NCBI GenBank assembly: GCA_030689665.1
Contig: JAUYFS010000033.1
Coordinates: 1-36,655 of the forward strand
Source: a bacterium
GTDB lineage: Bacteria; Patescibacteriota; Minisyncoccia; Minisyncoccales; JAUYFS01
Reading direction: 5' to 3'
Length of the DNA stretch: 36,655 bases
The translations under genes and the position numbers were made by a program. The notes beneath the pieces were generated by a model. The model saw only the letters and a program-made list of their open reading frames with translations. It searched no databases and was not told where the DNA came from. Positions 8,537 through 10,890 of the stretch are shown in pieces; positions within the stretch are counted from its first letter, which is position 1, and each line of letters starts with the position of its first letter.

Positions 8537-9013
8537 ATGAAAATTATTGATGAAAAGTTTGAAAAAGTAAAACAAATAGCCAAATTAGATTATAACAAAA
8601 TTAAAAAAGTAAAATGTCCTTTTTTGCAGGATTATGTTTATTTTAATAAAGATGGTTTTGACCACTTATTATTTAAAACTTGGAACAGAAGCAGGTCTCA
8701 ATTAGAACAATACTCAAGACTAAGGCTTTTATCTCTAGTTCCTGAAATTATCGCTAAATCACATACTTTACAAGAATATGATGAACGAAAAATTTTTGTA
8801 AGACAAAAAATTAATTCTCGTTGGGAGCAAAGAATGAAAATGGTTCGTTATTATGTTTTTGTTGCAGTTGTTAAGACCGTAAGATTAAAAATAATCGTTA
8901 AAGAAATTGAGGGCGGCGAGAAGTTTTTCTATAGCTTGTATCCCTCTTGGAAAAAAGACAAAAAAGACCCCAAAAAGAAAATATTTTATTCTGGTAATCT
9001 AGAAGAGGATTAA
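8537..9013 (+). CDS. Hypothetical basic protein, possibly a BECR/RelE-like RNase fold
   Basis: Clean 158-aa ORF; YFNKDGFDHL, Arg-rich helix, C-terminal beta-strand run (YYVFVAVV, RLKIIVKE, FFYSLYP). The fold is inferred from pattern memory, not alignment. Confidence 0.6.
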   Translation: MKIIDEKFEKVKQIAKLDYNKIKKVKCPFLQDYVYFNKDGFDHLLFKTWNRSRSQLEQYSRLRLLSLVPEIIAKSHTLQEYDERKIFVRQKINSRWEQRMKMVRYYVFVAVVKTVRLKIIVKEIEGGEKFFYSLYPSWKKDKKDPKKKIFYSGNLEED

Positions 9014-9015
9014 AT

Positions 9016-9077
9016 AAAAAAGCACCCGTCTGCAGTTTATGTATTGACCGCGGGAGGGCCAAAGCCCTCACAGGTGC
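9016..9077 (-). ncRNA. Candidate ~60-nt three-way-junction small RNA
   Basis: Minus strand: GCACCUGU/ACGGGUGC closing stem, GAGGGC-UUUG-GCCCUC, GCGGU-N10-ACUGC, then U6; two G-U wobbles exist only on the minus strand. Confidence 0.7.
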
Positions 9078-9083
9078 ATTATT

Positions 9084-9112
9084 AAAATAACAAAATTTTA
9101 TATAGGTGTCAA
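9084..9112 (-). promoter_or_regulatory. Putative sigma70 promoter of the small RNA
   Basis: Minus strand TTGACA(9112-9107)-N17-TATTTT(9089-9084) with extended -10 TG; 6 nt separate it from the first paired base. Confidence 0.65.
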
Positions 9113-9156
9113 TGGCTACCTGTGGAAAATTAAAATCATTTTTAATATCTTAAAAC

Positions 9157-9185
9157 TTGCCCAAAATCGTTCTCTGAGATAAAAT
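9157..9185 (+). promoter_or_regulatory. Putative promoter of the kor operon
   Basis: TTGCCC-N17-TAAAAT. Confidence 0.5.
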
Positions 9186-9210
9186 AAAATATTACTTCAT
9201 TTTTTAGTTT

Positions 9211-10890
9211 ATGAAAGATTTTTCTTTTTTAATCGGCGGAAAAGCTGGCGACGGAATCAAACAAGCCGGGCATTTTTTAGCCCAGCTCTTTAATGAATTG
9301 GGATATAATATTTTTATTTACGAGGATTATCAGTCGCTGATAACTGGCGGACACAATTTTTCAATTGTCAGGGCCAGCGACAAAAGAATTTTAAGCCACA
9401 AGCAAAAAGTTGATTTTGCCATTGTTTTTAATAAAGACACCCTGGAAAAAAATCAGGAAAATTTCAAAAAAGAGACAATTATAATTTATGATTCTGATGT
9501 TATCCAAAGCAATGATTTGCCGAAAAAATACAAGGCAGTCGCTTTTCCAATGTCCAATGTTTTAAAAGAAAGCAATTTGCCGCTGATAGTGAGAAACGCG
9601 GTTTCTCTGGGAATTTTAGCAGGGATTTTGAAAATAGATTTTGAATTGGTTAAAAAAATCATTGAAAATTCAGTTCATAAAAAAATAGAAGAAAACATAA
9701 AAGTGGCTGAAATCGGATATAAAGAAGGTCTTGAACATAAAAACGGATTTGAAATTGAAAAACTCAAAAACGAACCTAGAAAAATTTTAACAGGCAATGA
9801 AGCAATTGCGCTTGGCGCGGTGCGGGCAGGAATGAAATTTTATTTTGCTTATCCAATGACGCCAGCTTCAGGCATTTTGCATTTTTTGGCTGCTAATGAA
9901 GATAAATTCGGAGTTAAAGCCATTCATCCTGAAAACGAAATCGCGGTTGCTTTAATGGCAGAAGGAGCGGCAACAGCAGGAAAAAGAGCAATGGTTGGCA
10001 CGTCGGGCGGAGGTTTCGCGCTAATGGTTGAAGCGCTAAGTTTGGCAGGCCAGGCGGAAATTCCAATTGTTTTTGTTTTGTCCCAAAGGCCAGGACCTGC
10101 GACCGGAATTCCGACTTACACTTCGCAGGCAGACCTTTTGTTTTCTTTATTTGCGGGCCACGGAGAATTCCTGAAAATTGTCGTTGCTCCTGGCGATGTT
10201 GACGAGGCAATGTTTTTAACGGCAATGGCAATGAATTTATCTTGGAAATACCAAACGCCAGCAATTATTTTAAGCGATAAACACCTAAGCGAAAGCGTTT
10301 TCAGCGCTTATTATGATGAAAATAAAATAAAAATAGAGCAGCCAAAATTATGGAGCGGCAAAGGAGATTATAAAAGATATTCTGACGAAAAAGACGGAAT
10401 TTCTTCCTTAGCTTTTTTGGGCGACAAAAACGCGATTGTGAAAGCGACAAGCTATGAACACAATGAATTCGGAATCACAACAGAAAACTCCGAAGAAGCC
10501 AAAAAAATGGCTGAAAAAAGATTAAGAAAAAAAATAACGCTGCTCAAAGAATTAAAAGGCGAAAAAACAATAAATGTTTTGGGAAACAAGAAAAGCAAAA
10601 ATGTTTTAATTGTCTGGGGTTCAACAAAAGGAGCTGCTGTTGAAGCGGCGGAAAACTTGGGAATCAAAGTTATCCAGCCAATGTTTATTGAGCCGTTTCC
10701 GGCTGATGAAATTAAAAAAGAATTAAAAGGAGCGAAAAAAATCATTGATATTGAAACAAACGCCACAGGGCAAATGGCATATATTCTTAAAGCCAACGGA
10801 ATTGAGGTTGATGAAAAGATTTTAAAATATGACGGCAGGCCGTTTATAATTGAAAAGCTGGAAGAAAAAATTAAAAAAATAATAAAATGA
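9211..10890 (+). CDS. korA: 2-oxoacid:ferredoxin oxidoreductase alpha subunit (gamma-alpha fusion)
   Basis: GGKAGDGI, TGNEAIALGA, AYPMTPAS, ENEIA, TSGGGF, QRPGPATGIPT. Confidence 0.92.
   Translation: MKDFSFLIGGKAGDGIKQAGHFLAQLFNELGYNIFIYEDYQSLITGGHNFSIVRASDKRILSHKQKVDFAIVFNKDTLEKNQENFKKETIIIYDSDVIQSNDLPKKYKAVAFPMSNVLKESNLPLIVRNAVSLGILAGILKIDFELVKKIIENSVHKKIEENIKVAEIGYKEGLEHKNGFEIEKLKNEPRKILTGNEAIALGAVRAGMKFYFAYPMTPASGILHFLAANEDKFGVKAIHPENEIAVALMAEGAATAGKRAMVGTSGGGFALMVEALSLAGQAEIPIVFVLSQRPGPATGIPTYTSQADLLFSLFAGHGEFLKIVVAPGDVDEAMFLTAMAMNLSWKYQTPAIILSDKHLSESVFSAYYDENKIKIEQPKLWSGKGDYKRYSDEKDGISSLAFLGDKNAIVKATSYEHNEFGITTENSEEAKKMAEKRLRKKITLLKELKGEKTINVLGNKKSKNVLIVWGSTKGAAVEAAENLGIKVIQPMFIEPFPADEIKKELKGAKKIIDIETNATGQMAYILKANGIEVDEKILKYDGRPFIIEKLEEKIKKIIK

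Follow-up and report, generated by a model that had tools for sequence, protein, structure and literature searches.

What does a small structured RNA do when its own promoter directs it towards the 3' end of a small hypothetical gene? The question is raised by contig JAUYFS010000033.1 (assembly GCA_030689665.1) of a tiny groundwater bacterium of the Patescibacteriota, whose own genome amounts to 455 kb and is 96.5% complete. The analysis covered positions 1 to 36,655, a stretch of 36,655 nucleotides (nt) called the window below. It carries a gene for a 158-amino-acid (aa) protein, a solo member of the LPD3 family, and, a few bases beyond the stop codon and on the other strand, a three-way-junction RNA. 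The pair recurs throughout the phylum, and all genomes compared here are metagenome bins. The RNA constitutes a new structured class and is obligately paired with solo LPD3 proteins. The reading that we favor, at about even odds (probability 0.5), is that the two form an RNA-antitoxin module of new architecture, in which the RNA would act by binding the protein directly.

A three-way-junction RNA with its own promoter converges on the protein gene

The initial annotation of this locus had proposed a promoter on the minus strand followed by a closed three-way junction and a U-tract, and all three were recovered at the same coordinates by inspection of the sequence, a promoter scan and RNAfold (Table 1). 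The RNA is predicted to start at G9077, 6 nt after the -10 hexamer, and to consist of a 56-nt junction and then six U residues, with the U-tract ending 3 nt from the stop codon of the 158-aa open reading frame (ORF). The promoter scored 10 of 12 in the scan and has a TG extension in addition; promoter-like sites are common in this AT-rich region, with 18 found compared to 11.4 ± 3.4 in shuffled sequences. RNAfold returned the closed three-way junction at -27.9 kcal/mol with a z-score of -4.24, and none of 200 dinucleotide shuffles folded as well. The two wobble pairs (U.G in P1 and G.U in P3) both become A.C mismatches on the opposite strand, as expected from the earlier claim that they work on the minus strand only. 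The RNA is single-copy in its own genome, and R1, the covariance model of the junction RNA, gave 63 bits at this locus. That the RNA stands beyond chance follows from its conservation across loci and not from this single locus.

When checked against Rfam, as had been suggested with the annotation, the RNA matched no known family: no Rfam 15 family, those of abiF, type III antitoxins, riboswitches and ribozymes included, reached its gathering score in the window, and over positions 8850-9300 the matches at E ≤ 10 were at chance level, the best of them reaching 18.1 bits against a gathering score of 39 bits. ARAGORN found no tRNA or tmRNA. The 36.6-kb window contains 34 ORFs of at least 130 aa, of which 31 lie on the plus strand; the three on the minus strand (130-140 aa) are each wholly contained within a longer plus-strand ORF. 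Since all three are embedded in this way, no independent minus-strand gene is evident and none that would need the terminator of the RNA, in agreement with the initial annotation. The small RNA is the sole evident minus-strand transcription unit across the window (1-36655).

Table 1. Features of the LPD3 locus in the window, with positions and strand in window coordinates and the basis of each assignment.
Feature	Position	Strand	Basis
Solo LPD3-family protein gene, 158 aa (stop TAA 9011-9013)	8537..9013	+	ORF list, Pfam, relatives
Sigma-70-type promoter (TTGACA 9112-9107, 17 nt, TGT-TATTTT 9092-9084)	9084..9112	-	sequence, promoter scan, conservation
Three-way-junction small RNA, 62 nt (predicted)	9016..9077	-	sequence, RNAfold, covariance model
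P1, 8 bp	9077-9070/9029-9022	-	sequence, RNAfold
P2, 6 bp, UUUG loop	9069-9054	-	sequence, RNAfold
P3, 5 bp, 10-nt loop	9051-9032	-	sequence, RNAfold
U6 terminator tract	9021-9016	-	sequence
DnaA-box-like 9-mer TTTTCCACA, end 8 nt upstream of the -35	9121..9129	-	one of 4 matches in the window

The RNA accompanies the protein across genomes

Searches that started from the protein found it in 35 of 401 genomes of the same order, at 45 places, of which 43 were testable (of the other two, one was truncated by the end of its contig and one, a fragment, was left out). R1 detected the RNA in convergent orientation at 41 of these 43 places, and the two places without it were those with the weakest protein matches (E of 3e-4 and 7e-4). 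The expectation of the initial annotation that homologues would keep the downstream structure and promoter was thus borne out, with covariation in all three stems as described below. Wherever the flanking sequence of a homologue was long enough, a homologous junction and, beyond it, TTGAC were present on the other strand shortly after the stop codon. Among genomes with two protein copies, all five tested had exactly two RNAs, one adjoining each copy.

Searches that started from the RNA gave a similar picture. The model scan of 151 genomes of the same order yielded 17 matches, of which 16 were real; 14 of them flank the protein and two are orphans. The remaining match, of 20.6 bits in genome G077, falls within an rpoC-like ORF and was rejected as a false positive. 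A pattern scan for the core of clade A, the clade that includes the window, was run over 185,579 species genomes and found 28 sites in many candidate phyla. Of the 24 testable sites, 21 had a full-length convergent homologue, two had a C-terminal remnant (loci L097 and L104) and one had no trace of the protein (L105). At the level of the phylum, the protein profile matched 17 of 151 genomes at 19 places. R1 with strict filters found the RNA at seven of these and, with the filters off, weakly at eight more, in the right place and on the right strand. When 12 divergent phylum-level loci were folded from their best promoter, nine gave a clear junction, one a weak junction and two none.

These distributions bear on the possibility that the RNA has no relation to the gene with which it travels, being a trans-acting or housekeeping small RNA or merely a terminator or insulator of elaborate form. 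P1 together with the U-tract does have the shape of an intrinsic terminator in clade A, and the element resembling a DnaA box hints that the RNA is regulated in its own right. However, the RNA is preceded by a near-consensus promoter of its own and by no minus-strand gene, and it was found only next to LPD3 genes or what is left of them, in about 9% of genomes, which argues against a housekeeping role. In most clades, furthermore, a separate terminator follows the junction, indicating that the junction does not serve termination. We regard this explanation as highly improbable.

Selection acts on the fold and strand of the RNA

The TTGAC of the -35 hexamer was invariant in 28 of 28 aligned loci, and a TAnnnT -10 hexamer was placed 6-7 nt before P1. 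With R1, the RNA strand gave scores of 44-75 bits, and the gene strand did not exceed 16 bits. Both results support the independent minus-strand transcription unit that had been proposed from the single locus. Each of the 37 RNAs gave the three-way junction when folded alone. In the model-fitted alignment, 90.3% of the cells were paired, compared to 81.1% after shuffling and 30-45% in slid registers. Double changes were observed in 14 of 20 pairs (7 of 9 in P1 and 4 of 5 in P2), and none of 500 shuffles reached any of five measures. The fitted alignment misregisters P3 in 18 of the 37 sequences, and its P3 counts were replaced by an anchor-based count, according to which the five core pairs of P3 are paired in 100, 100, 100, 100 and 95% of the sequences. 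The pair types at these positions are, in order, AU/UA/GC, CG, GU/GC/AU, GC and CG/UA. Sequence conservation is strongest around the junction and at the AA just 5' of the 3' strand of P3, and P2 is capped by the stable tetraloops GUCA, UUUG, GAAA, CUUG and GCAA. The G.U pairs and the strand-specific model score indicate that it is the fold of the RNA itself, on its own strand, that is under selection. A literature search returned no account of this module, of the RNA or of any LPD3-associated RNA; the supplements of PMC5512222, a possible source of LPD3 contexts, lay outside the search.

Transcript ends and the antisense alternative

The two transcripts end close to each other, and the manner of their termination differs among clades. 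The U-tract directly follows P1 in only 5 of 37 loci, the window included. A separate hairpin with a U-tract follows the junction in 31 of 37 loci, and neither arrangement is present in one orphan. At 19 of 29 loci, mostly of clades B and C, the hairpin is located between stop codon and junction and is accompanied by a U-rich tract on the strand of the mRNA too. At these 19 loci it is thus predicted to terminate transcription in both directions, and the mRNA would probably stop short of the junction and lack its complement. The separate bidirectional terminator found in most relatives goes beyond the initial annotation, as do the LPD3 identity of the protein and the DnaA-box-like element.

This arrangement invites an antisense explanation of the type I kind, in which the RNA would pair with the 3' end of the mRNA and lead to cleavage of the duplex by RNase III, or would act by transcriptional interference, with the junction serving only stability or kissing-loop initiation. 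A layout in which the transcripts converge and either abut or have a terminator in common is that of txpA/ratA, with an overlap of ~75 nt at the 3' ends, and of RNA I/RNA II of the par locus of pAD1, as described in PMC4147584. Clade A, including the window, lacks a terminator in the interval from the stop codon to the junction, so that the mRNA may extend through the junction there and be fully complementary to the RNA. At four of the 37 loci (L008-L011), the terminator hairpin of the RNA lies 23-27 nt past P1, within the last ~13 codons of the protein gene, and the RNA would consequently carry an antisense 3' tail. At the protein level, this hairpin overlaps the conserved ...ILHSGDLETQ tail, and P3 of L009-L011 has an extra inserted hairpin.

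Several observations argue against an antisense role across the family. With a predicted bidirectional terminator before the junction in 19 of 29 loci, the conserved element would be left without a complementary mRNA, and the G.U pairs and strand-specific score point to selection on the RNA's own fold. Pairing of the RNA with the 5' region of the mRNA was considered and rejected: the duplex energies were -15.66 kcal/mol for cognate and -15.69 kcal/mol for non-cognate pairs, and the cognate ranks were scattered. Moreover, orphan RNAs persist without any target mRNA. The toxins of the converging type I systems are small membrane peptides of less than 60 aa whose RNAs act by base pairing, whereas the cassette protein is predicted to be a 158-aa soluble alpha/beta domain. 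Taken over all clades we judge the antisense explanation distinctly unlikely, and it is most plausible for clade A and L008-L011.

A solo LPD3 protein with a weak resemblance to RNase toxins

Pfam gave a single collinear match of the window protein, to LPD3 (PF18798), with an E value of 7.4e-4 over profile positions 11-113 of 114; its score of 20.1 bits is below the curated cut-off of 27 bits. Among 39 aligned relatives, 21 matched LPD3 (best E of 3.6e-7), and many of 220 homologues carry a precomputed PF18798 label. Those homologues whose source is named are hypothetical proteins from Patescibacteria-type metagenome bins, and the protein atlas clusters for the window protein likewise contain hypothetical proteins only. 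By sequence profile, we assign the window protein to a divergent solo LPD3 subfamily. LPD3 is one of 40 function-unknown domains that PMC5512222 describes in polyvalent proteins of phages and conjugative elements.

The family is large. A profile search of 1.84 billion representatives gave 1,515 clusters (50% identity) at E ≤ 0.001 and 1,010 at E ≤ 1e-10, and the best 150 of these clusters all have lengths of 98-220 aa, indicating a large set of solo proteins. H43, R53 and S133 were invariant in alignments of 39 and 47 sequences with identities down to 25%. These residues are compatible with endoribonuclease activity, although they prove nothing. A tblastn search of 50,697 records of phages and 72,556 of plasmids gave no homologue; in viral contigs, the RNA core of clade A gave one match, at a contig end, and those of clades B and C1 gave none. 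NCBIfam, PHROGs and PADLOC returned nothing meaningful for the window protein, and a related-locus search with this single protein returned four loci. In many LPD3 genes (L005, L011, L026, L029, L030, L033 and others), a TATAAT-like hexamer is located 4-10 nt ahead of the start codon and a Shine-Dalgarno sequence is not visible, so that their mRNAs may be leaderless.

The AlphaFold2 model of the window protein had a predicted local distance difference test (pLDDT) of 88.7 and a predicted template modeling score (pTM) of 0.82, and the model of a member with ~30% identity (pLDDT 90.1) showed the same topology, namely a long N-terminal helix, a small beta-alpha unit, a long helix and a four-stranded antiparallel meander. 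Comparison of both models with 48,161 chains using VIA-align ranked RNase toxins of the BECR/RelE-ParE type at the top, over residues ~14-140. The best matches were the CdiA-CT structures 6cp9_A (Z of 5.1, root mean square deviation (RMSD) 4.1, 96 residues aligned) and 7m5f_C (Z of 5.1, RMSD 3.4, 89 aligned), followed by a Salmonella toxin-antitoxin toxin (4.2-4.8), RegB (up to 4.6), BrnT (4.0-4.4) and RelE (3.8-4.4); colicin D, MqsR, HigB, YoeB and ParE were also in the list, and the overall range of Z was 3-5.1. The initial annotation had predicted a BECR/RelE-like fold. That prediction holds in so far as such toxins top the list for two models, but not as an assignment, given the low Z values and the lack of a Foldseek match in the PDB. 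The BECR-like core is therefore a weak yet reproducible hint and not evidence of membership.

The BECR/RelE-ParE RNases (CdiA-CT, colicins D and E5, RelE, BrnT, RegB) are the nearest solved folds, albeit weakly, and resemble the cassette proteins in being small and basic with invariant His/Arg/Ser. They differ in lacking a sequence-profile link to the cassette proteins and in being neutralized by protein antitoxins or immunity proteins and not by RNA. The colicin D immunity protein has been described as a tRNA mimic. The relation to LPD3 polyvalent proteins rests on the sequence profile and on the best structural matches among viral models: in BFVD, ranks 1, 3, 5 and 6 were LPD3 or large-polyvalent-protein entries, with probabilities of 0.94-1.00 and TM-scores of 0.42-0.55. 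Polyvalent proteins are described as giant multidomain virion or transfer proteins (PMC5512222), whereas the LPD3 protein of the cassette is a solo chromosomal protein of 140-165 aa in Patescibacteria with a dedicated RNA partner.

The cassette is patchy and its RNA outlives the protein

The flanking genes differed at all 15 loci checked, and the neighbors include LeuRS/RecG, Fic, GNAT/MreB, N6-methylases, RNase H, LexA-methylase, GroEL and L11. Protein copies that reside in the same genome always belong to different clades, with 43-69% identity to the query for one and 28-34% for the other. The cassette is thus patchy and context-free and is present as orthogonal paralogues. The promoter of the RNA is near-consensus, and the upstream regions of the protein gene vary. 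A Fic/Doc-family gene is located on the RNA-promoter side in 3 of ~17 contexts (L006 1-705, L023 2-943 and L061 161-1219), and N6-adenine methylase genes adjoin the cassette in two (L009 and L015).

An intact RNA with its promoter was kept where the protein is absent (L053, L054 and L105), truncated (L097 and L104) or ridden with stop codons (L076), and no solid intact protein was found without an RNA. At L097 and L104, only the last ~50-60 codons of the LPD3 gene are left, and the region with the invariant His and Arg is gone. A pseudogene reading based on a single TAA was rejected for G489, G513, G409 and G229, in which the stops are the true ends of shorter proteins; G543 is the only true pseudogene among the matches of this kind. 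At L061 (1446-1561; genome G443), two junction RNAs of different clades are arranged in tandem 2 nt apart, with one promoter and one terminator. This genome has no LPD3 protein match, and its Fic/Doc-family gene lies divergently upstream of the RNAs. The RNA outlives the protein and not the reverse, which fits an antidote that is required whenever the poison is present.

The same data can be read in terms of a ribonucleoprotein, in which the RNA would serve the LPD3 protein as an obligate cofactor, a scaffold, a guide or a dedicated substrate, for example within a nuclease that depends on RNA or a unit that modifies or senses RNA. The strict one-to-one linkage, the co-inheritance, in which RNA clades track protein clades, and the conserved fold are equally expected for such a particle, and weak fold matches to a domain whose function is unknown in the description of PMC5512222 are no proof of toxicity. 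However, a ribonucleoprotein would hardly account for the one-sided decay, with intact RNAs beside lost, truncated or stop-ridden genes at seven loci (those named above, L061 included), or for the two different tandem orphan RNAs that G443 keeps without an LPD3 gene. A stoichiometric cofactor, furthermore, needs no convergent layout with a much stronger promoter for the RNA. We consider a ribonucleoprotein unlikely.

A DnaA-box-like element lies beside the RNA promoter

DnaA-box-like 9-mers were called with TTWTNCACA, which we take to be the DnaA-box consensus. The strict consensus was present in 11 of 37 RNA promoters, starting at -51 to -46 in nine of them, compared to 52 of 2380 background stretches of 100 nt; with one mismatch allowed, the counts were 17 of 37 and 100 of 2284. 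In the RNA-first set, which comprises partly the same genomes, a box was found at 12 of 27 loci. The 9-mers thus occur at about a third of the loci, in either orientation and in all clades, and boxes are located 45-54 nt upstream of the RNA start in, for example, L006, L010, L014, L018, L043, L053 and L105. Of the two loci with a C-terminal remnant, L097 has a DnaA-box-like 9-mer upstream of the RNA, and at L104 neither a box nor a TTGAC -35 hexamer was detected.

The box as a general promoter feature of the window's own genome was rejected, because only 2 of 92 promoter-like sites there have a box 3-14 nt upstream and the genome as a whole shows no enrichment of boxes (49 found compared to 66 expected). 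The other of these two sites is outside the window, at ~11620-11760 of contig C10, and reads TGTGGAAAA, 6 nt, TTGACA, 17 nt and TATTAT. A short non-coding stretch follows that ends in a hairpin and a U-tract near the contig end, and this site may encode another small RNA. The box at the RNA promoters suggests a possible link between replication control and effector release.

An RNA-antitoxin module as the favored reading

Five observations favor the antitoxin reading. Selection acts on the fold and strand of the RNA; a complementary mRNA is probably missing at most loci, and no pairing with the mRNA 5' region was detected; the RNA outlives the protein and not the reverse; the cassette is patchy and context-free and is present as orthogonal paralogues; and the nearest folds of the protein are RNase toxins. 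According to this reading, the ORF and the minus-strand RNA would form an autonomous two-gene cassette of the toxin-antitoxin kind. The LPD3 protein, with a predicted alpha/beta core like that of BECR/RelE RNase toxins, would be the harmful or effector component. The 56-nt junction RNA would be made in excess from its near-consensus promoter, end at or next to the stop codon of the protein gene and neutralize the protein by direct binding via the folded junction, possibly as a pseudo-substrate. Loss of RNA synthesis or stability would then free the protein, and candidate triggers are phage takeover, loss of the cassette and a change in DnaA activity that acts via the box beside the -35 hexamer.

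A number of points weigh against this reading. The Z values do not exceed 5.1, and the alignment tool warns that Z below 8 may reflect merely a common arrangement; Foldseek against the PDB gave no match at E ≤ 0.001, and a sequence-profile search of the PDB gave none at E ≤ 10. LPD3 itself has no known activity in the account of PMC5512222. PADLOC on 39 members gave only weak matches that serve as leads, PDC-M04B in 6 of 39 (best E of 0.0036) and PtuB in 4 of 39. The window protein gene is surrounded by housekeeping genes and starts 10 nt past the stop codon of one of them, a pseudouridine synthase gene, and the setting is no defense island. The potential complementarity between RNA and mRNA in clade A and at L008-L011 and the equally good fit of strict linkage and co-inheritance to a cofactor RNA, both described above, belong here as well. 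Finally, the counts overstate the support, because related genomes are non-independent samples.

Comparison with known RNA-antitoxin systems

In type III systems, a small structured RNA made in excess neutralizes a protein effector by direct binding (PMC4147584). The cassette resembles ToxIN, CptIN and AbiQ/antiQ in pairing a protein effector with a small structured RNA, in its patchy distribution and, by analogy, in the presumed inhibition. Its architecture is different. Type III systems, TenpIN included, have an upstream tandem-repeat array that is co-transcribed with the toxin gene across a leaky terminator and is processed by the toxin, whereas the single, non-repeated RNA of the cassette lies downstream in convergent orientation and has a promoter and a terminator of its own. 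The initial annotation had already pointed out this contrast with repeat arrays, and it holds across the family: only the orphan locus L061 has two tandem units, and these are of different clades. In addition, the cassette RNA is a three-way junction and not a pseudoknot, and the window protein and 38 relatives gave LPD3 only, with no ToxN-type family in Pfam at E ≤ 0.1.

AbiF-RCd22 of Clostridioides difficile is a second point of comparison, in which a structured RNA that is not an array neutralizes a toxic protein in trans by direct RNA-protein interaction; RCd22 is reported to be associated with abiF and to carry two abiF motifs (PMC12373285). In the cassette, no abiF RNA motif was found with Rfam, and no Abi_2 protein with Pfam or PADLOC for the protein and its relatives. 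The cassette is also convergent, and the phylum and protein fold differ. By analogy, the cassette would work most like type III systems and AbiF-RCd22, while being a member of neither.

Implications

The dedicated, covarying RNA partner provides the first functional handle on LPD3. The RNA itself is a new structured RNA that is well supported, by 37 sequences, covariation in all three stems and the presence of both a promoter and a terminator. To our knowledge, almost no regulatory RNAs have been described in this phylum of ultra-small, mostly uncultured bacteria. The cassette is self-contained within ~650 bp, and its protein family is large. Should the RNA prove to act on the protein as an antitoxin, upstream repeat arrays that the toxin processes would be no requirement of RNA-antitoxin systems, and many more may hide as terminator-like structures downstream of small hypothetical genes.

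A bolder proposal, which we hold to be tentative and rather doubtful as a whole, is that the cassette represents a new protein-RNA class of toxin-antitoxin or defense systems that is widespread in Patescibacteria, in which a single convergent junction RNA, expressed from a consensus promoter flanked by a DnaA box, sequesters an LPD3 effector. If this were true, the LPD3 domains injected by phages and conjugative elements would be RNA-targeting or RNA-binding effectors, the orphan junction RNAs would be immunity decoys against incoming LPD3 effectors, and the DnaA box would tie effector release to the replication-initiation state of the cell.

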